DNA of 64,000 nucleotides from positions 85,533 to 149,532 of IMG/VR virus record IMGVR_UViG_3300034103_001746. One strand, given 5' to 3'. Below the pieces are notes generated by a model. That model did no database searches and had not been told where the DNA came from. It worked only from the letters and a program-made list of their open reading frames with translations. Positions 23,446 to 64,000 of the stretch are shown here, in pieces (within the stretch, counting starts at the first letter, position 1; each line of letters opens with the position of its first letter). This stretch comes from a virus. Made by a program: the position numbers and the translations under genes.

Positions 23446-24452
23446 TTTAGGCCCATTGTAACCTTAATATTTTTTACTAAATCTATATAAGCAGCCTCAT
23501 TATCATATAGATATTGACGTAATTTTTCTGTACCTTGAAACTTTGGTTTGTCTGGCAAAGAAGTCAAAGTATACCAGGCCCCACCTTTGTGAATAATACC
23601 CATATCAGATCCTAGTGTTATGGCTTCCATATATTTATCAACACCTTGTCCATATCTGATATAACTAGTAATATTGCCGCCTGGAGGACCAAGAGCGGAA
23701 CAAATAACTTGCCACTCAATTTCTTGTCCTATTTGTGTACTGTCCGCACTCAGAGTCCAAGGCTTGAATGTTTTTGCTCGTAACTTAATATCGGTTTGAT
23801 AAGCAATAGCCTGACCACTCTTCTCTTTAAATTCTGCACCATATCCTGTTGGATTTCCCATAAGATGAGTAATACCTATAACAATATTTTTATTAACAGG
23901 AATAACATTGGCAACTTTACGACAAAACTTAGCTAATAATTTAGCTCCGTCTGCTCTTTGCATTTTATCCATTTCACTAGTAATTTCAGCTTCGGTACAT
24001 AGTGCAGAATAGGAGTCTATGATTAGAACACATCCTGGTACTTCATTAATAATTTTTTCTGCTATTTGTAAGTATTCTTCAGCGTGTAGAATTTTTCCTT
24101 GCTGACTACCAATTACATGAAACTTATCTAGATTTAGTCCAGGTATACCTTCTAAGTCTCTTTTCTTTAGTCTACCTTCTATGTTTAGATAATACACCTC
24201 TCTGGTGTCTTTCAGATCTCCTTTATATTCTGCTCTTTGTGCTGTTGCTGCGAAGTCTAATGATGTTGTGGTTTTACCACACTTTGGCTGACCAGTTAAT
24301 ACTACAAAACTTCCTTCTGGTATTCCACCATTTAATACTATGTCTAACGACGGACTAACTGGAATAATAACGCTTTTTTTATCTACAATAGCATTGCCAT
24401 TAAGAATAATATCGTCGCCGAAATTTTTTGTTACATCTTCTTTAAGACTCAT
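23439..24452 (-). CDS. recA: RecA/UvsX recombinase
   Basis: SPSLDIVLNGGIP, GQPKCGKTT, IIDSYSAL, GGAWY. Confidence 0.92.
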   Translation of the reverse strand: MSLKEDVTKNFGDDIILNGNAIVDKKSVIIPVSPSLDIVLNGGIPEGSFVVLTGQPKCGKTTTSLDFAATAQRAEYKGDLKDTREVYYLNIEGRLKKRDLEGIPGLNLDKFHVIGSQQGKILHAEEYLQIAEKIINEVPGCVLIIDSYSALCTEAEITSEMDKMQRADGAKLLAKFCRKVANVIPVNKNIVIGITHLMGNPTGYGAEFKEKSGQAIAYQTDIKLRAKTFKPWTLSADSTQIGQEIEWQVICSALGPPGGNITSYIRYGQGVDKYMEAITLGSDMGIIHKGGAWYTLTSLPDKPKFQGTEKLRQYLYDNEAAYIDLVKNIKVTMGLKC

Positions 24453-24864
24453 TGTCTAAATCCTTAAGTTTTGAGATTATGTTTTGTGAGTGTGCGGTTT
24501 TTTGAAAAACAACATCTTCTTTTCGTTCTATCGGCTTAGTTATCGATGTGTTTTCTGTAGCCAAGATCGCAGCTTGTTGTTCTATCATAGCCGGAAGATG
24601 TGGCGCTCGCAATGAATATATTTTTTTCCCTTTGTCACTTTGCAAAGCTCTTATAATAGCTTTTGCCGGATATCTTTGTAAAAGCTTATGGGCGGATCCT
24701 ATTTGGTTTCTATAAAAAGCAGCCCATTTCTTTTGTATCCAAAATCTGTAATGAAGATCAGATTTTTCTGTTACGGCTTTTCTTTCGCATATTATCTCCG
24801 TAATGTATTGTGCCGGAGACACCTCTTTGCCGTTGGAATACTTAGACAGATATTTATCGTTCAT
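24442..24864 (-). CDS. Hypothetical protein
   Basis: 140-aa ORF in the operon. Confidence 0.65.
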   Translation of the reverse strand: MNDKYLSKYSNGKEVSPAQYITEIICERKAVTEKSDLHYRFWIQKKWAAFYRNQIGSAHKLLQRYPAKAIIRALQSDKGKKIYSLRAPHLPAMIEQQAAILATENTSITKPIERKEDVVFQKTAHSQNIISKLKDLDNES

Positions 24865-44021: not shown

Positions 44022-45407
44022 TTATAATAATTCTTCTAATGGTCCCATTTGATTCAAATCTTTAAGTCCAGGATCTGACATTCCAAACAAATCTCGTGGA
44101 GCGCCAGCTAGATGCAAAAATGTTAAGTACATATTAGCAATTGTTCTATGATTAGGTTGTCCATAGCCTGGATAATCTATATAACGTCCACTTTTTAATT
44201 TACCACCCATATCTCCAATTACTACCATCGGCCACTCCCAACACCGACTGTGATGAGCTTCAGCGGCATCACTTAGATAAACGATCACGGTGTTGTCGAG
44301 CATCGTACCGTCCCCTTCTTTTATTGCTTCAAGTTTCTTACATAACCCCGCAATCAGATCAAAATGGAAGTGACGTATCATATCGTACAACTCCAACTGT
44401 GACATTCCGTTCTCTCCGCCTCCGTGACCCATATGATGCTTGCCCATCTTGAGTCCAAGGCCAGAGAAATTAATATCAAAATCCTGTTCGCCAGCCGCCG
44501 ACGAGATTGTTACCACATTTGTTAATCCACTAATCAATGAGGCTGCTGCTATATCAAATTGAGCATCTAATCGGTCTGTTTCAATAACACTATTATATTT
44601 ATTATTTACTACTGGACCCTTTTCTCTTAAAGTATGTTTTATATCGTTTAGTTTGCTCTGTCTATTACTTAATGCTTCAAAAGTTTCTATATAGGCTGTT
44701 AATTGTTGTCGTTCTGGGCCAGCAAGATTAGCTTCTGCTATTTTTATATCATTTTTAAGAAAATCTAAAAGATTATTTTTTGCTATAAATTCTTGTTTTG
44801 CATTACCTTCGGCAATGCTTCCAAATAAATTATTATATGCTTGTTGTGGTTGACATATAATTGGCATTAATTTAGCTTTATCCCACGCCGAAATGCTATA
44901 TACCACATTATTGTCGAGTTTTTTAGAAATACCAAGTCCAACAAATGGGAAAATACTAGGAAGAGCTTTAGCAAGAGCGCAGTCGATAGTTTCGCTAATA
45001 GATGTTGCTCCTTTGCGACCTCCAGGCACAACTCCTAAAGCTCCATGATCATTAGAATGTCCACCTCCGCATACGCGACCAGATAATCCATTAACAATTG
45101 TTAATTTATTTTGCCATTTAGCTACTGGCTCTAGAGACATTGGTAGTTTTTTCCCTGTCAATGATATGTTAATAAGCTCTGGAGGACCATTAAAAGGTTC
45201 TTCTGGACGCTCAGGGCGTATAATGCCTTCTGGTGGCATTTGTTGAGGTTTTACTCCATTGCTTTCAACAACAAAAACAAATCGTTTTGCTGTAATTGGT
45301 AAACCAGCCGCTTCTGCTTTTAACTTATTAAGTATAGGATATAAAAACGTAGCTGCTGCTGATAAACCAAGAGCTTTAAGCGTGTTTCTGCGCTGTTCCA
45401 AAAACAT
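44022..45407 (-). CDS. DUF1552-family protein with Tat-like signal
   Basis: RRNTLKALG, KRFVFVVESNG, ETID, LTNV, GHGG, EGDGTMLDNTVIVYLSD, HH..WP..VIG. Confidence 0.85.
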   Translation of the reverse strand: MFLEQRRNTLKALGLSAAATFLYPILNKLKAEAAGLPITAKRFVFVVESNGVKPQQMPPEGIIRPERPEEPFNGPPELINISLTGKKLPMSLEPVAKWQNKLTIVNGLSGRVCGGGHSNDHGALGVVPGGRKGATSISETIDCALAKALPSIFPFVGLGISKKLDNNVVYSISAWDKAKLMPIICQPQQAYNNLFGSIAEGNAKQEFIAKNNLLDFLKNDIKIAEANLAGPERQQLTAYIETFEALSNRQSKLNDIKHTLREKGPVVNNKYNSVIETDRLDAQFDIAAASLISGLTNVVTISSAAGEQDFDINFSGLGLKMGKHHMGHGGGENGMSQLELYDMIRHFHFDLIAGLCKKLEAIKEGDGTMLDNTVIVYLSDAAEAHHSRCWEWPMVVIGDMGGKLKSGRYIDYPGYGQPNHRTIANMYLTFLHLAGAPRDLFGMSDPGLKDLNQMGPLEELL

Positions 45408-56465: not shown

Positions 56466-57215
56466 CTATTCTTTATTGAACTCAATGTTTTCTATAATCC
56501 ACTTTTTATACATACTAATTCTAGTGTGACCTGCTTCGTCTCCGTAAGTTGAGTCTGGTTTTTTATCCTCTGCTATAACACATGAGTTAATACCAGCTAA
56601 TTTGTTTCCTATAAATAGGCCACCCCCACTATCTCCACTAGATATTAAAAATTCTAAAGCTGTTTTTTTATTGTTGACAGATGGCGAACATATTAATAAA
56701 TGTCTATCAATAGAATCAATTCTATTTGATCCTGCTCTTTGTTGTGTATCGGATTTGTTGGCCCCAGTATTAAAATTACCATGTAACCCAAATCCAGATA
56801 TAGAACACACCTTGCCTATCTCGTCATCTTTATCATATAGTTCGGGATAAAATTTTAATCCAATATCATCATCACACCAACCAATAGCAATATCATATAT
56901 TCCAAAATTCTGTTCATTAAAATCTTTGTGCGTAATAATTTTAGATACAGATATTTTTTTACTATTAATGTTTAAGGTGCATGTTTTAGAGCCTGCAACA
57001 ACGTGTGCTGCTGTAACTATCCATCTTGGTTTTATAGCCACAGCAGATGCACAATATGCTTTTTTATCTTCTGTTTGACCACAAAGTTTACCTACATAAA
57101 CAAAATTTTTAGCATATTCTATGTATCTTGAATCTGGAGTAGCTGGGTCTATAGTTCCGGCTAGTAAAATTGAGCTAAATAATGATACTATGAAAAATAA
57201 AATTAAATGTTTCAT
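56466..57215 (-). CDS. Secreted trypsin-like serine protease
   Basis: Signal peptide; VTAAHV, YDIAI, GDSGG. Confidence 0.92.
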   Translation of the reverse strand: MKHLILFFIVSLFSSILLAGTIDPATPDSRYIEYAKNFVYVGKLCGQTEDKKAYCASAVAIKPRWIVTAAHVVAGSKTCTLNINSKKISVSKIITHKDFNEQNFGIYDIAIGWCDDDIGLKFYPELYDKDDEIGKVCSISGFGLHGNFNTGANKSDTQQRAGSNRIDSIDRHLLICSPSVNNKKTALEFLISSGDSGGGLFIGNKLAGINSCVIAEDKKPDSTYGDEAGHTRISMYKKWIIENIEFNKE

Positions 57216-57406: not shown

Positions 57407-58414
57407 TTACGATAATACTTTAGATGCTATTAAACAACCTTTAGAAACAGCATGTAAAGGATCTTCTGCGTGTCTTACTTCTTTTATATTTAGTGGAAAA
57501 CTATTTTCTTCTAATTTTTTACGAAATAAATCTATGTATCCATCTGCCTGCGAAGTGCCGCCCGCCACAACAATAGATAGAGGATTTTTAAATTTGGGTA
57601 AAGCTTTATGTAATGTTAATGCTGAAGCTAATTGTTTAGTAGTATAATCTATTAGTCTATCATAGTATGCTGATACCGCAGCAAGCACCGGATTATCGTT
57701 CGGTTCGCCTATTTTAAAATTACCCGCCTCCTTCTCTGCCTGAACAACACTGTCCTGTTCTCCGGTCGCTACAGCACTCATACGATCAATCCAATCGCCA
57801 GATTTGGTCGTACTAAATACAACTGTTGGTTCGCCATTGAGCATAACACAAACATTAGTCATTCCAGCACCACAGCTAACTGCTATTCCTGTATAATCAT
57901 CATTCTCTAATTCAGCATAGCATAATGCTTCTGCTTCATTCACAGATCTAGCATCATAACCACATTCTGATAGAATGGTTTTAACCACATCCTCATGATA
58001 TCCAACATCAAAATCTTCATCTTCTTGATCTACTGGTTGTGCTGGAACACAAAAAACAAGTTTTTCACCGGGTTCCGATGCCTGCCCGACTACTTCTTTT
58101 AAGATAAATGCTAAAATTCTTTTTGCATTTTTTTCTTTTGCTGATACGACACCCTTATGCATCGGTCTTTTTGCTGTGTCGTTTCTTTCTATGGCTTTTT
58201 CTATAGCGTCCTTACCCAATAATATAAAAGAATTATCTGACTCATCTTTTATAAAAACTTTTCCTGATAAGCCTTTTTCTATCATTTTTGTGGCTACGGG
58301 TGTTGTTGGCTTAATTATATAGAAGGCATCTCTAAAGTCTTTATAGATAACGCCGCTCTGAGAATCTTCTGATAGAACAATGAAACTTGTTCCAACGTCT
58401 AAACCTTTAGCCAT
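57407..58414 (-). CDS. Actin-fold ATPase, volactin-like (MreB/FtsA/ParM superfamily)
   Basis: Phosphate-1 GLDVGTS, connect NEAEA, phosphate-2 SCGAGMTN, adenosine AGGTS, AVSKG. Confidence 0.85.
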   Translation of the reverse strand: MAKGLDVGTSFIVLSEDSQSGVIYKDFRDAFYIIKPTTPVATKMIEKGLSGKVFIKDESDNSFILLGKDAIEKAIERNDTAKRPMHKGVVSAKEKNAKRILAFILKEVVGQASEPGEKLVFCVPAQPVDQEDEDFDVGYHEDVVKTILSECGYDARSVNEAEALCYAELENDDYTGIAVSCGAGMTNVCVMLNGEPTVVFSTTKSGDWIDRMSAVATGEQDSVVQAEKEAGNFKIGEPNDNPVLAAVSAYYDRLIDYTTKQLASALTLHKALPKFKNPLSIVVAGGTSQADGYIDLFRKKLEENSFPLNIKEVRHAEDPLHAVSKGCLIASKVLS

Positions 58415-58416
58415 AA

Positions 58417-58719
58417 TTACCCTTTCATATTTTTAAGCTTATTAATAGCCGAATCAATCTTTTCTGTTGACTCTTTCTTTTCTCCTAGTTGGGTATATTT
58501 TTTTTCCAAACCATCCGTATCAATATTGGTAACATATTTTTTGTCATCAATATTAATTTGTGTAGCAGTAAGTGTATTCTGGTCAAAAAAAGATTTCGGC
58601 TTAGTATTATATACACCATTATTTTGGCCTATTTTTGCCAAAACATATCCCATAAAGAAGAATAGGATATTTGTTAATATCAGAATACAAATAATAATAT
58701 TACTTGTGTTGTCTAGCAT
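58417..58719 (-). CDS. Single-TM protein upstream of the actin gene
   Basis: N-terminal TM; C-terminal amphipathic SAINKLKNMKG. Confidence 0.7.
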   Translation of the reverse strand: MLDNTSNIIICILILTNILFFFMGYVLAKIGQNNGVYNTKPKSFFDQNTLTATQINIDDKKYVTNIDTDGLEKKYTQLGEKKESTEKIDSAINKLKNMKG

Positions 58720-59101
58720 CGTTTATCCATGTTAAATATTTGACCTTACCCTTATATCCAACATAGATTGATACTTCAACTTTATCTTTTATGATCCTTG
58801 AGTCTGGCAAACTTTTAACTCCATATTCTTTAGCAAGATCTTTATCTTTGTCTATATCTATAGAACATACAATGAAATCATCTAATGCTTTGGCAGCATC
58901 TTCATCCTCTAAATCTTTATGAAGAACACCACAGTATCGACACCAATCTGCCCCGAATATTACTAGCACAGGTTTCTTTGAAGATTCTGATAATGCAATA
59001 GCATCTACCAGATTATTCATGAAATATGCGTTTTCTCCATAAGCCCTATCGCTAATCATGCCTAGCATAATGACAAATAGTAATAGGGTTTTCTTTATCA
59101 T
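58700..59101 (-). CDS. Secreted thioredoxin-family protein
   Basis: Signal peptide; KPVLVIFGADWCRYC; YGVKSLP. Confidence 0.88.
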   Translation of the reverse strand: MIKKTLLLFVIMLGMISDRAYGENAYFMNNLVDAIALSESSKKPVLVIFGADWCRYCGVLHKDLEDEDAAKALDDFIVCSIDIDKDKDLAKEYGVKSLPDSRIIKDKVEVSIYVGYKGKVKYLTWINDARQHK

Positions 59102-59994
59102 ATGTCACCAATGACTCTACCTTGAGACGTTCTTCGTGCAAAACCTTTTCTAACGAGATAGGGTTCGATGCTATTCTCAATGGTATCTATAGCGATTCCG
59201 GTCATGGACGATATAGACTTAAGACCTAAAGCACTTCCTCTCGACTTCTTTAATACACTAATATACATTCTATCATATATATCTAGACCATTTTTATCTA
59301 TACCTTGAATATTAAAGATCTTATCAATATCATTTTCTTCTGGATGACAAGACTTATAATTTCTATACCATTGAAGTCTCGCGTTAAGAATACGCGGAGT
59401 TCCTTTGCTTCTTTTTGCTATTTCCAATAGATCATCTTCTGAAACAATTAGTCCCAACTTCTCGGCGTTTGACCCTGCTAGTTTAGCAAGTTCATCGTCT
59501 TGATAAAAGGACAGATGCTCTTTAATTTGAAAACGGTCATAAAATGGCTGACTTAATGATCCACCACTAGTTGTTGCTCCCACAACAGTAAACATTGGTA
59601 GATCTATTGTTTCTGGCTTATCTTCTACACTTATACTGAGAACAAAATCTTCCATAACTGGATATAGAAATTCTTCCACTAACTTTGGTAGTCTATGGAT
59701 TTCATCAATAAATAATACTGATCTTGGAGCTATGCTCATTAAATATGGCAATATACTCTTAACATTACGAATATTAGCCGCATTAGTGGTATATAAATTA
59801 ACGTTAAGTTCGTTTGCTATAGCACTCGCTATTGTTGTTTTACCAAGGCCGGGAGGCCCGTCAATTAAAACATGGGGCATCACCGCCTCTGTGTTTTTAC
59901 ACCCGGTCACAGAGACTCTCAGACGCTCTATAACGTCACTTTGGCCGATCACATCATCAAAGGTGGTAGGTCGCAAGTTGTTTTTCATAATCAT
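59098..59994 (-). CDS. ruvB: Holliday junction branch-migration helicase RuvB
   Basis: LRP..FDDVIGQ, GPPGLGKTT, LFIDEIHRL, LYPVMED, GATT, RSKGTPR, EPYL. Confidence 0.95.
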   Translation of the reverse strand: MIMKNNLRPTTFDDVIGQSDVIERLRVSVTGCKNTEAVMPHVLIDGPPGLGKTTIASAIANELNVNLYTTNAANIRNVKSILPYLMSIAPRSVLFIDEIHRLPKLVEEFLYPVMEDFVLSISVEDKPETIDLPMFTVVGATTSGGSLSQPFYDRFQIKEHLSFYQDDELAKLAGSNAEKLGLIVSEDDLLEIAKRSKGTPRILNARLQWYRNYKSCHPEENDIDKIFNIQGIDKNGLDIYDRMYISVLKKSRGSALGLKSISSMTGIAIDTIENSIEPYLVRKGFARRTSQGRVIGDI

Positions 59995-61316: not shown

Positions 61317-62177
61317 TCAATACTGATCGTCGTAATCCTCGTCATCATAATCTACATCTTCAGACTCATCATCAAACTGATCCCAGTATGATTCATCAAG
61401 ATCATAATTATCTTCATCATAATCTTCATCTTCATCGTAACTAAAATCAGATGAATACAGAGGCTTGAGCAATTCGCCTTGATACTCTCCGACTACTTCA
61501 TATCGGCAAGTACGAAGTTTCTCACAATTACAATCACTTGGAACACTTACAACATCACGCGGATTAATCTTGACAATCACAATACGGTCGCCAGATTCTA
61601 CAGACCCATAACCGGCCACATAATTCAATGCTCCAGCATGAAGTCCATCAGAGCATCCTCTTGCACGATCATCGTCAACTTTTGCTCGCTGCATTTTAAC
61701 AACTTGACCAACACTATTATCAAACGTTCCACGATACTTATCCTTAAAATCACCCCTAACTGCCTTATAGGCCAGAAAGTGACCATCCTCAGTAATTGGC
61801 AGATGTTCATGCTCAAGGAAATCATAAAGTTCCTTCTGACTCTGCATACTAGGATTTTCCATAAGATTATGAAGGAAATTAGTAAGAGGCTGAAAAGGTA
61901 GACCCTTACTCATAAACTCCAGAATACGCTTGCTAATACTACCATGAACAACTTCACCCTCATAAGTAACCTGACCATTCTTGATTTCAACAAGACCATC
62001 ACTAAATGTAGCAATAGCCTTTTCCACATCAACAATTTCTAGCAACTCATCAGCGGTTGCTGTTGGCAAACGCTCAACAATCATCTTGTAATTGATATGA
62101 TCTGGCAAAACCTGGTAACTCTTGTTATTAAGAACAAGCGTCAAATTACCATCAACAAACATAAACGGAACAGACAT
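61317..62177 (-). CDS. rIIB: rIIB-like protein
   Basis: ENPS...ELYDFL...ITEDGHFLAYKAV...DNSVG...CSDGLH...VKINPRDVVSVP...RTCRYEV. Confidence 0.9.
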   Translation of the reverse strand: MSVPFMFVDGNLTLVLNNKSYQVLPDHINYKMIVERLPTATADELLEIVDVEKAIATFSDGLVEIKNGQVTYEGEVVHGSISKRILEFMSKGLPFQPLTNFLHNLMENPSMQSQKELYDFLEHEHLPITEDGHFLAYKAVRGDFKDKYRGTFDNSVGQVVKMQRAKVDDDRARGCSDGLHAGALNYVAGYGSVESGDRIVIVKINPRDVVSVPSDCNCEKLRTCRYEVVGEYQGELLKPLYSSDFSYDEDEDYDEDNYDLDESYWDQFDDESEDVDYDDEDYDDQY

Positions 62178-62209
62178 AATTAAACTCCTTAGTGTTACTT
62201 ACCTGTGAA

Positions 62210-64000
62210 TTACTTAATCAAACTACTCAACTGAATCTTGAACAGATCAACGCTATCACTATCCATTTGACCAAACCAATCCTTGTTATTATCAGTATAA
62301 TAACTAGAACGAGAGCCAAGACCAGAGATAGGATTTTTATTGGTCAAATCTCTAATCGTACCACTGACTTGATTCGTTCCCATAATGTACTTGATCATCG
62401 GATTCTTGTCAATAGCGTCTTTAATCATTTTCTTAACTTCAGACGCTTTTGGCAATTGATACTTAGTCTTAGTCTGTGACTTTATAATCTTAATATACTT
62501 ATCACTATCTGTCTTATAGACACGATCTTCAATCATATCAATTAGCCTATGATACTCTATATTAGTAGTACGAATATTTTCACTATCAATCTTATCAATA
62601 CCAATCGTTTGTAGAATAGTATTCATATGATCAAAATACGCTTCCTTAGTAAATTTTGTAATATCATACTTAAATCTATGAATAGTATCGGCAAAAAATT
62701 CTGTAATCAAGTAATAATTGACAGCATCAACCATATCTTGATTTTTGATAAACTTAGCATAGTCCAAACCAAAAATATTCAACATATGATATGCGAATTG
62801 ATGCAAGACTGTGCCGTGATTATAGTATCTATAATTATTAGAGGTATCATTTTCATGAAATTGCTCCCGACAGTATTCCACCAGATCGTTATAAGATATG
62901 ACGCTATCAAAACGACTCTTAATTTTCTTTAGACTATCCATAAAGAAGTCATTAAATGGAATCATATTGTATCCATCATCTGACATTTTCTTTACAAGAC
63001 TACTCTTGATAGCATAAATCTTAGTATTTCCAAACATATCTTTGATTAGATTCTTCATTGAAGCATCATTAATCATAATATTTAGTTCGGAAATCATAGG
63101 TAGATTTTCATTATCATTACTCTTATAGCGAGTAATAGGAATATATACAATATCTTCACTATCACTAAAATCATCAAGTTCAGTCTGTGTTAGTGTCTTT
63201 AGATATTTAGCATCATTATATTGATTAGTAATGTTACCGCTATCCTTAGATGCACCATAGATAAAGAATACATCTTGGTCGCTAACACTACCCTGACTAC
63301 TTCTTGTGCTTTTCTTTCTTGGAGTATTGCTTTGGCTAAGGTGCTTATAATCAGAAACCTTGAGAATATTATGCTGACCAACATCCTCAATAAGTTGATC
63401 AAAACCTTCACTACTCTGAGTGTGATCCTTAGTATCAAGCATCATATAACCAAAACAATCATTTTGATTACAATACTTGGTAACGATCTTTTTGGCTGTT
63501 TCTTCGCTCTTAACATCACACACAAAGAAAGCGATCTTGCCATTTTTCTTGGCACTATAGTAGTAGCCATAGCCCTTACCAGTTAGTGTTTCATTATGGA
63601 TTTTATCCGTAAGAGCCACCAATCTGCGTGACCTATAGCCAGAACTCCTATAGTTAAAAACATACAGACTCTTTCCAGCAGGAATTTTATATTCCAGATC
63701 ATTACCAGAATTAATAGAATGACTCTTGCCCTTTCTATCTGTCCACGAAGCACCCACTCCCCATCCACCAGCAAGTTCATTCAGTGTATAATATGTTGTA
63801 ATTGCTTCAACTTTAGTTTTGGCATCAGCAATCTTTTGAGTAAACATACTCTTGAGTTCAGTAAAAATCTCCTGAGTCTTTTCTCTCAGACTTTTCTTGA
63901 CTTGCTTGGTATACTGCAATCCTTCTCTTGAAACATCCATTTCAAGTTCACCAATACCAAAATCCAACTCAAGATAAAGACCAGAATTGATAATTTCATG
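62210..64000 (-). CDS. rIIA: rIIA-like protein (5'-truncated by the window)
   Basis: FGIGELEMDVSREGLQY motif; upstream of rIIB; frame open to the window end. Confidence 0.8.
   Translation of the reverse strand, partial: HEIINSGLYLELDFGIGELEMDVSREGLQYTKQVKKSLREKTQEIFTELKSMFTQKIADAKTKVEAITTYYTLNELAGGWGVGASWTDRKGKSHSINSGNDLEYKIPAGKSLYVFNYRSSGYRSRRLVALTDKIHNETLTGKGYGYYYSAKKNGKIAFFVCDVKSEETAKKIVTKYCNQNDCFGYMMLDTKDHTQSSEGFDQLIEDVGQHNILKVSDYKHLSQSNTPRKKSTRSSQGSVSDQDVFFIYGASKDSGNITNQYNDAKYLKTLTQTELDDFSDSEDIVYIPITRYKSNDNENLPMISELNIMINDASMKNLIKDMFGNTKIYAIKSSLVKKMSDDGYNMIPFNDFFMDSLKKIKSRFDSVISYNDLVEYCREQFHENDTSNNYRYYNHGTVLHQFAYHMLNIFGLDYAKFIKNQDMVDAVNYYLITEFFADTIHRFKYDITKFTKEAYFDHMNTILQTIGIDKIDSENIRTTNIEYHRLIDMIEDRVYKTDSDKYIKIIKSQTKTKYQLPKASEVKKMIKDAIDKNPMIKYIMGTNQVSGTIRDLTNKNPISGLGSRSSYYTDNNKDWFGQMDSDSVDLFKIQLSSLIK

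Follow-up and report, generated by a model that had tools for sequence, protein, structure and literature searches.

A volactin-family actin with a dedicated single-helix membrane adaptor in a large group of environmental phages

Volactin, an actin of the haloarchaeon Haloferax volcanii (VolA, HVO_2015), forms dynamic filaments that bridge the cytoplasm and touch the membrane with their tips (PMC10869688), and its gene adjoins that of HVO_2016, which is CdpA-like (PMC12126565). The family, and its adjacency to a membrane protein in archaea, are already known; the literature searched yielded no publication on binding between HVO_2016 and volactin or on a role of the HVO_2016 tail, nor any on volactin in phages or viruses, where the two subjects were mentioned together only in work on a Haloferax regulator. 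To our knowledge, hardly any phage cytoskeleton has been described apart from the tubulins (PhuZ/TubZ) and a single DNA-moving prophage actin, AlpC. The latter comes from prophage CGP3 of Corynebacterium glutamicum, where the adaptor AlpA binds DNA and links the phage genome to the filament (PMC4446434). Here we describe a volactin-family actin gene and, directly upstream of it, the gene of a small membrane adaptor, at positions 57407–58719 of a 64,000-nucleotide stretch (the window) that forms the final 64 kb of the IMG/VR record IMGVR_UViG_3300034103_001746 of a lake phage (149.5 kb, rated complete by CheckV). The pair is probably a two-component, membrane-tethered actin filament system.

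The two genes, and the elements recognised within the adaptor, are as follows:

57407–58414, minus strand: volactin-family actin, 335 residues (open reading frame (ORF) list, Pfam PF25216, AlphaFold2, Foldseek, tree)
58417–58719, minus strand: adaptor gene, 100 residues plus stop (ORF list, linkage to the actin, alignment, topology)
58633–58701, minus strand: transmembrane (TM) helix of the adaptor, about residues 7–29 (hydropathy, positive-inside rule, AlphaFold2)
58420–58563, minus strand: conserved cytoplasmic tail domain of the adaptor, residues 53–100 (alignments, purifying selection)
58423–58458, minus strand: C-terminal amphipathic basic helix of the adaptor, residues 88–99, ..IDSAINKLKNMK, the proposed actin-docking motif (AlphaFold2 helix and motif counts)

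The coordinates, ORF lengths and motifs given in the original prediction, which a model had made from the letters of the window, all proved correct against the ORF list and the sequence. The adaptor ends with TAA, two bases (TT) follow, and the actin begins with its ATG, AAAGGG being a plausible ribosome-binding site; at its other end, the first 20 nucleotides of the adaptor gene lie within the thioredoxin-like ORF that precedes it. Thus, the operon is tightly packed.

The actin is a member of the volactin family, both in the window and when the whole record is analysed. It scores 214.1 bits against the Pfam Volactin profile PF25216 (cut-off 35, E 4.5e-63), its residues 1–330 matching profile positions 1–320 of 321, as opposed to 25.6 bits against MreB/Mbl (PF06723), which lies under the cut-off of 27 and involves residues 60–211 only. 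Searches agree: it shares 34–36% identity over the full length with haloarchaeal volactin homologues and 38% with a planctomycete-type one (E ~1e-70), while MreB sequences are matched at E ≥ 0.009. In MreB-rooted trees it falls inside the volactin family, which a fully supported long branch separates from MreB, and within the family it belongs to a clade of 16–17 representative clusters (SH-like support 90–97) distinct from the planctomycete and haloarchaeal clades. All inspected contigs of this clade look like phage DNA. The affinity to volactin rather than MreB, originally read from signature strings, is therefore upheld by profile, search and tree. Those strings are indeed present (MAKGLDVGT, RPMHKG, FCVPAQPVD, GYHED, GYDARSVNE, ELENDDYTGIAVSCGAGMTNVC and GDWIDRMSAVATG), and PHROGs has no family for either the actin or the adaptor.

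The actin fold is complete. An AlphaFold2 model built from an alignment of 71 diverse homologues has a predicted local distance difference test (pLDDT) score of 96.3 and a predicted template-modelling score of 0.93, and shows the strand and helix order of a full four-subdomain actin. In the same alignment, the nucleotide-binding residues D6, G8, T9, E160, G182, G184, D210, G285 and G286 are invariant, as are the phosphate-1, connect, phosphate-2 and adenosine motifs across the volactin family. The model and these residues bear out the intact 335-residue actin-fold ATPase that had been predicted. The phosphate-2 motif opens with Ser in place of the usual Asp (SCGAGMTN). Since haloarchaeal and planctomycete volactins also have this form (SxGxGMxN), it is a trait of the family. 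The protein carries neither a membrane-targeting nor an amphipathic extension; its first strand, MAKGLDVGT, is its very start.

Among solved structures, Foldseek places MreB, MamK and BeeR first (template-modelling score 0.68–0.72, identity 12–19%), followed by actin, FtsA, PilM, crenactin and Hsp70; PilM:PilN and FtsA:FtsN structures, and 2wus (MreB with RodZ), are among the fold matches. A single-sequence search of the PDB sequences with the actin returned nothing useful, whereas the family profile retrieved MamK (1e-16), BeeR (5e-11) and MreB (3e-8), then FtsA. All four are filament formers. It is with them, by profile, that the protein keeps company, and not with the non-polymerising ASKHA/Hsp70-like proteins that had been named at the outset as the contrary case.

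Copies of the actin are numerous. A word-indexed search gave 2,402 clusters at 90% identity, the best 120 being all 84–91% identical to the query, and an exhaustive search of 50%-identity representatives gave 967 clusters at E ≤ 1e-3. At least 406 IMG/VR contigs, up to ~244 kb in length, carry a close copy; single-protein scans of viral contigs with distant relatives added almost nothing new. The label of jumbo phage does not suit a record of 149.5 kb (the usual limit is 200 kb), though the related contigs do reach ~244 kb. No other gene of the neighbourhood is as conserved as the actin: across 80 related IMG/VR loci, its median identity to the window gene is 85%, compared with 73% for the RuvB-like ATPase, 54% for the trypsin-like protease and 47% for the adaptor. 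Synonymous sites are saturated (synonymous divergence, pS, ~0.66) and nonsynonymous divergence (pN) is 0.10, giving a ratio of nonsynonymous to synonymous rates (dN/dS) of ~0.09–0.15. Such a level of conservation fits what would be typical of a polymer.

One representative cluster (P0122, 55% identical to the actin) holds an intein of ~360 residues between ..STTK and GDWVD.., and several further clusters of ~700 residues give the same two-piece volactin match. Inteins tend to occupy conserved sites of essential proteins. At one locus (L025:739-1347), a 202-residue ORF, homing-endonuclease-like by eye, sits between adaptor and actin, and in L084 and L094 an HNH gene comes just behind the actin. 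The conserved actin gene thus seems to be a target of mobile nucleases.

The adaptor accompanies the actin with great regularity. It lies directly upstream in 79 of the 80 related loci, mostly across a gap of 1–6 nucleotides, as a protein of 94–124 residues; in the 80th, which has the inserted 202-residue ORF, it is still detected before the insertion, so that the conservation of the TM gene beside the actin in other phages, which had been named as a check, extends to all 80. Its N-terminal segment is very hydrophobic (median best 19-residue Kyte-Doolittle score 2.66 in 55 homologues). In all 55 distinct sequences, positive charge is greater on the flank that follows this helix than on the one that precedes it, which argues that the adaptor is oriented N-out/C-in and that the segment is not a cleavable signal peptide. 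AlphaFold2 gives a helix at residues 2–34 (pLDDT 88–98), a disordered middle and a C-terminal helix at 88–99. Hydropathy and model together thus support the single-TM partner ending in a short amphipathic helix that the original prediction had described. No Pfam or PHROG family matches the adaptor, none of the phage adaptors has a Pfam match, and neither Pfam nor structure prediction finds a DNA-binding domain in it.

The layout of the adaptor is a TM helix, a variable linker and a conserved tail of ~48 residues ending in ..S[IV]NKLKN[ML]K[GR], with the consensus ISIDDxKxVxDIKTxGLEKKYxxLGExKxSxENISxSINKLKNMK[GR]; in the window the C-terminus reads ..SINKLKNMKG. Residues I88, A91, I92, L95 and M98 line one side of the C-terminal helix and lysines the other. 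Selection differs along the protein: the dN/dS-type ratio is ~0.35 (purifying) in the tail versus ~0.8 (drifting) in the N-terminal part.

The end of this tail reaches well beyond the close relatives. We defined a strict pattern, [ILVMA]x[KR]L[KR]x[ILVM] within the last 25 residues, for which the background expectation is ~0.003 per ORF. It occurs in 54 of the 55 distinct partners of the close clade. We then inspected 11 further volactin loci, nine from representative clusters (40–54% actin identity) and two from ‘huge phage’ genomes (31–34%). Among the 123 same-strand ORFs of these distant phage loci, seven carry the strict pattern, and all seven are the ORF directly upstream of the actin. 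Overall, the upstream ORF ends in a basic amphipathic helix of the adaptor pattern in 8 of the 11 loci, with tails such as ..INKLKELKKR, ..ADKLKKMLKRRKEQ, ..IDKLRQLKKAKG.., ..VEKLRKLLGR, ..VGKLKNLLGNLKT, ..AKRLRDILNKRKD, ..IKKLRDLVRKGDK and ..LKNLDMLKRHKK..; one huge phage has a looser tail, ..ALKAVRKK... At the N-terminal end of these ORFs, three lineages have a TM helix, three a Trp/Lys-rich stretch that looks amphipathic by eye, and one a coiled coil. The linkage between the actin and its partner gene is both strict and ancient. Elsewhere in the window, a 140-residue ORF (24442–24864, minus strand) ending in ..IISKLKDLDNES / ..NIISKLKDLDNES also fits the strict pattern and could be a second client of the filament; one hit among the 91 ORFs of the window is within chance at the above background, and we do not claim it as such.

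Cellular volactins have partners with the same kind of tail. The close relatives of one cellular volactin cluster are Planctomycetota wherever the source is named. In a 7.87-Mb genome with 65% guanine plus cytosine (GC), the gene that ends at the volactin start codon encodes a 284-residue coiled-coil protein with the C-terminus ..VKGALAKLKKLQQGGE. Upstream adaptors of the planctomycete type likewise end in ..ALAKLKKLQKGG or ..VKGALAKLKKLQKGG, close to the ..SINKLKNMKG of the phage. From metagenomes, 80 loci of this type were collected, 54 of which have enough upstream sequence; an ORF with the tail motif precedes the volactin in 45 of these 54, as compared with 5 of 538 other ORFs, a ~90-fold enrichment. 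These adaptors are 230–430 residues long and have no TM helix; they possess a conserved N-terminal domain and a long coiled coil. The domain spans ~60 residues (..LDIQKVIxxSTSxVSLxDLxKKGFKQVKVLNQ.., from the upstream ORFs of loci L119–L198).

A hidden Markov model (HMM) of this N-terminal domain matches the N-terminal extensions of seven long volactin clusters (E 3e-19 to 4e-5), which are thus adaptor-actin fusions. The tail motif is absent from all three fusions inspected, as is expected if the job of the tail is to join the two proteins. Two other N-terminal extensions, in P0125 and P0129, were considered as a fused adaptor or as an excisionase-like helix-turn-helix (HTH) domain; neither assignment is supported by the phage-tail HMM, Pfam or the bacterial N-domain HMM, and both were rejected. 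Further cellular clusters have architectures of their own: in P0161 the volactin domain is joined to a Wzz chain-length determinant and to a ParA/MinD ATPase resembling BY-kinases; a weak ParB-HTH match is seen in P0150, and a tandem double actin both in P0126 and at locus L105. Such volactin fusions suggest a tie to the export of envelope polysaccharides, and possibly one to DNA.

In haloarchaea, the gene upstream of volactin on megaplasmids encodes a protein of ~300 residues with four TM segments and an acidic linker, which matches the description of the CdpA-like HVO_2016 in H. volcanii (PMC12126565). It carries a related motif, V[NDA]GL[RK]xL[RKQ]GG, at an internal position with ~50 more residues after it. 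Taken together, the product of the upstream gene in phage, haloarchaeal and planctomycete-type loci has a module for anchoring or localisation, then a disordered linker, and ends in a small C-terminal part. Cross-detection between the HMMs of phage and cellular tails is consistent but weak (E 6e-4 to 0.05 in a small database), and the phage adaptor and the CdpA family have only a motif of ~10–20 residues in common. Our claim is therefore a shared short docking motif, not homology of whole proteins.

These data suggest how the phage pair might work. The actin would bind and hydrolyse ATP and form filaments in the host cytoplasm. The adaptor would sit in the inner membrane, its N-terminus outside, and expose to the cytoplasm a flexible linker and the conserved tail, in which a short strand-like segment is followed by the amphipathic basic helix ..INKLKNMKG. 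This helix would dock onto the actin, probably in a hydrophobic cleft, by analogy with other actin-binding helices, such as ParR on ParM and WH2-type helices on actin. Docking would fasten the filaments to the membrane, perhaps by their ends. Given that the actin has no extension of its own, that the adaptor tail is cytoplasmic, and that the filaments of the founding volactin touch the membrane, we propose that the attachment to the inner membrane is through the tail. More generally, localisation module, linker, docking tail and volactin may form a modular cassette, of which the phage version would be a miniature with the localisation module reduced to a single membrane helix; in the older cassette, the Planctomycetota type would use a soluble coiled-coil adaptor, and haloarchaea a four-TM, CdpA-like one.

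Several points weigh against a membrane-tethered filament. First, three of the deeper lineages have no clear partner: directly upstream of the actin there is ClpP in one (L098), a motif-less ORF of 76 residues in another (L083) and a partial ORF in the third (L103). Second, what phage and cellular adaptors share is a motif of ~10–20 residues, with the weak cross-detection given above (E 6e-4 to 0.05). Third, phosphate-2 has Ser for Asp; this feature, however, is family-wide and includes the archaeal protein that polymerises. Fourth, the role in infection is a guess: the pair may organise phage replication or assembly at the membrane, or it may reshape or arrest a host cell that lacks FtsZ.

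The host is probably a planctomycete, a conclusion that relies on one transferred gene. The DUF1552 gene of the window (44022–45407, minus strand) is 66–67% identical over its full length to proteins of Urbifossiella limnaea, Zavarzinella and other Gemmataceae, and its named cellular matches are all Planctomycetota, the phylum to which the named cellular volactins also belong. The suggestion of a Planctomycetota host in the original prediction thus gains support. Against it, the GC content of the phage, 32%, is unusually low for such hosts. Six close actin copies on short contigs had been binned into metagenome-assembled genomes of five unrelated groups, and we read them as mis-binned phage contigs. 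A Bacteroidota origin or host was rejected, as none of 301 Bacteroidota genomes has a true volactin save for one mis-binned contig.

With such a host, the phage module could mimic the host’s volactin cytoskeleton and plug into it, compete with it or replace it, so as to control the shape, budding or internal organisation of an FtsZ-less cell. We consider this conceivable but doubtful. If true, it would be the first takeover of a prokaryotic actin cytoskeleton by a virus and would imply a universal ‘volactin-docking peptide’ across bacteria, archaea and phages. Outright takeover of the host actin becomes possible because adaptors of the phage and of the likely host phylum share their docking tail. 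Host volactin would be caught at the membrane by the tail of the phage adaptor, or else the host adaptor would bind the phage actin or be competed for by it; in both cases the host actin would be re-wired or poisoned, stopping budding for example, and the phage would build no self-contained cytoskeleton. The closeness of planctomycete tails to ..SINKLKNMKG, the Gemmataceae-like DUF1552 gene and an adaptor that evolves much faster than the actin (47% versus 85% identity) are all in its favour. However, the phage keeps an extremely conserved actin of its own, suggesting a self-sufficient pair; the identity of only ~38% between phage and planctomycete actins makes co-polymerisation unlikely; and the host is unproven, the phage GC of 32% being far from typical Planctomycetota. 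We thus regard takeover as unlikely, although it is compatible with membrane-tethered filaments rather than exclusive of them.

The surroundings of the pair bear on another alternative. Both genes are part of a co-oriented, tightly packed minus-strand block comprising rIIA, rIIB, four small ORFs, the RuvB-like AAA+ ATPase, the thioredoxin-like protein, the 100-residue ORF, the 335-residue actin and the trypsin-like protease; the order headed by rIIB/rIIA is also found in a relative with 54% actin identity. The remaining features are:

58700–59101, minus strand: thioredoxin-like protein whose N-terminus is hydrophobic and resembles a signal peptide; accessory context (25 of 80 relatives only)
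59098–59994, minus strand: RuvB-like AAA+ ATPase; operon context (upstream in 74 of 80 close relatives, not in deeper lineages)
56466–57215, minus strand: trypsin-like protease that also starts with a hydrophobic stretch resembling a signal peptide; context, lying downstream of the actin
61317–64000, minus strand: rIIB homologue (61317–62177) and rIIA homologue (62210 to the window end) (phrog_609 at 1e-73; phrog_612 at 1e-20)
58606–58617, minus strand: GGTGTATATAAT box within the adaptor coding sequence, 203 nucleotides before the actin ATG (conserved in related upstream regions)

Other genes recur at phage volactin loci. Peptidases (trypsin-like, subtilisin S8, ClpP, M24 and M42) lie directly beside the actin in at least five lineages (L084, L098, L099, L101 and the window, 56466–57215), and glycosyltransferases (GT9, GT1 and GT10) are found beside it in L083, L086, L087, L098 and L084. 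The rIIA/rIIB head of the block, the signal-peptide-like flanking proteins and these recurring enzymes are hints that point to the envelope; none of them is in the conserved core. Phage replication is represented in the window by a DnaE-type polymerase in split form, a DnaB helicase and a ribonucleotide reductase. In the phage genome, neither a tyrosine integrase nor a tubulin (PF00091) was found.

One may picture a non-filamentous membrane complex, in which an actin-fold monomer or small oligomer is clamped to the single-pass tail, after the models of PilM/PilN and FtsA/FtsN, and serves as the cytoplasmic platform or switch of an envelope machine, e.g., for lysis timing, exclusion or protease export. 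This is about as improbable as a takeover. PilM:PilN and FtsA:FtsN do appear among the fold matches, the block is headed by rIIA/rIIB and flanked by signal-peptide-like N-termini, and peptidase genes recur next to phage volactins. On the other hand, the nearest proteins by both profile and fold are the cytomotive filament formers MamK, BeeR and MreB, conservation over the whole surface fits a polymer better than a platform, and the characterised member of the volactin family polymerises (PMC10869688).

DNA segregation or transport of the ParMRC/AlpAC type, with the upstream protein as DNA adaptor and the filament moving phage or prophage DNA, is very improbable. AlpC, the one phage actin whose function has been studied, works in this way with its adaptor AlpA (PMC4446434), and a cellular volactin, P0150, has the weak ParB-HTH match mentioned above. 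The adaptor, however, has a membrane helix and no DNA-binding domain, and the genome, in which ParA/ParB were not searched for, has no tyrosine integrase and hence no sign of a plasmid-prophage stage. In addition, the adaptor precedes the actin, which differs from the parM-parR order. Finally, that the two genes share an operon with no physical contact between their products, the tail being a general membrane-proximal or amphipathic feature, is hardly credible: the motif is short and tail-actin binding is our deduction, but the motif was confined to the ORF directly upstream of the actin among the 123 ORFs of distant phage loci, is ~90-fold enriched in cellular loci, survives the exchange of the whole N-terminal part of the adaptor (one TM helix, amphipathic by eye, coiled coil or four TM segments) and is missing from the three adaptor-actin fusions inspected.

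A further feature concerns the DNA of the adaptor gene rather than its product. Of 61 distinct related upstream regions, 41 have RGTGTA at −260 to −150 from the actin ATG, against an expectation of 0.04. The longer box, GGTGTAT[ACT]TA (loci L002–L081, about −200 to −227), is there invariably read as a GGT and a GTA codon, and the next codon begins with T or A. In nine other regions the box is located elsewhere: in two it lies at −42, where the intergenic gap is widened, and in seven it lies ahead of the adaptor, at about −325. Within the window alone the evidence for the box is weak. Across the loci it looks like conservation of a regulatory site at the DNA level, and it may be an internal or separate promoter, or another regulatory site, for the actin.

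What the locus adds is an actin of a recently named family that is a core, exceptionally conserved gene, with a dedicated membrane anchor, in a very large environmental phage group. There seems to be no earlier description of a volactin borne by phages, of an adaptor with a single helix, of the docking tail in common or of the evidence from fusions. The docking motif is testable and seems to link volactins to interchangeable localisation modules in phages, Planctomycetota and haloarchaea. The pair, of 100 and 335 residues, is also a convenient minimal system for the nucleation and anchoring of volactin filaments, and it could be a tool for probing cell organisation in FtsZ-less planctomycetes.

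Like the PhuZ/TubZ tubulins of jumbo phages, the actin would be a phage-encoded cytoskeletal polymer used in infection, as is known for the tubulins; unlike them, it belongs to a different superfamily, and this phage has no tubulin gene. The likeness to AlpC/AlpA is that there, too, a phage encodes an actin-like protein, in that case a filament protein that is transcribed together with an adaptor of its own and needed for efficient phage replication (PMC4446434). The adaptor described here, however, is a membrane protein devoid of a DNA-binding domain, and AlpC was absent among the relatives of the actin in every search made. MamK, BeeR and MreB are the nearest by solved structure and profile, and MreB is partly tied to the membrane by the single-pass RodZ. 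Nevertheless, identity to them is 12–19%, the MreB Pfam score is under cut-off, the phage actin has no N-terminal amphipathic helix, and the adaptor is unrelated to RodZ or MamJ.

Closer are the volactins of Planctomycetota, the likely host phylum, which belong to the same Pfam family, are ~38% identical and have an upstream gene with the same docking-type tail. They differ in that their adaptor, which in some cases is fused to the actin, has no TM helix and relies on a conserved N-terminal domain together with a long coiled coil, where the phage has a membrane helix instead. No paper on Planctomycetota volactin-family actins with an upstream coiled-coil protein was found in the literature searched; a possible relative is ‘Saltatorellin’ (bioRxiv 10.1101/817700), a filament former of Saltatorellota that resembles MamK. 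The haloarchaeal system of VolA/HVO_2015 and HVO_2016 (PMC10869688, PMC12126565) differs in that its adaptor has four TM helices and ~300 residues, where that of the phage has a single TM helix and 100 residues, with the motif at the very C-terminus, and in that the phage actin lies in a separate phage-type clade and is set in a virus of bacteria, not in an archaeal chromosome. As for likenesses, the actins belong to the same Pfam family, share the N-terminus MAKGLDVGT and are 34–36% identical to each other when haloarchaeal megaplasmid homologues are taken, and the haloarchaeal upstream gene, just as that of the phage, encodes a protein that is anchored in the membrane at its N-terminal end, continues with a linker, acidic or disordered, and closes with a small C-terminal part that carries a related motif.

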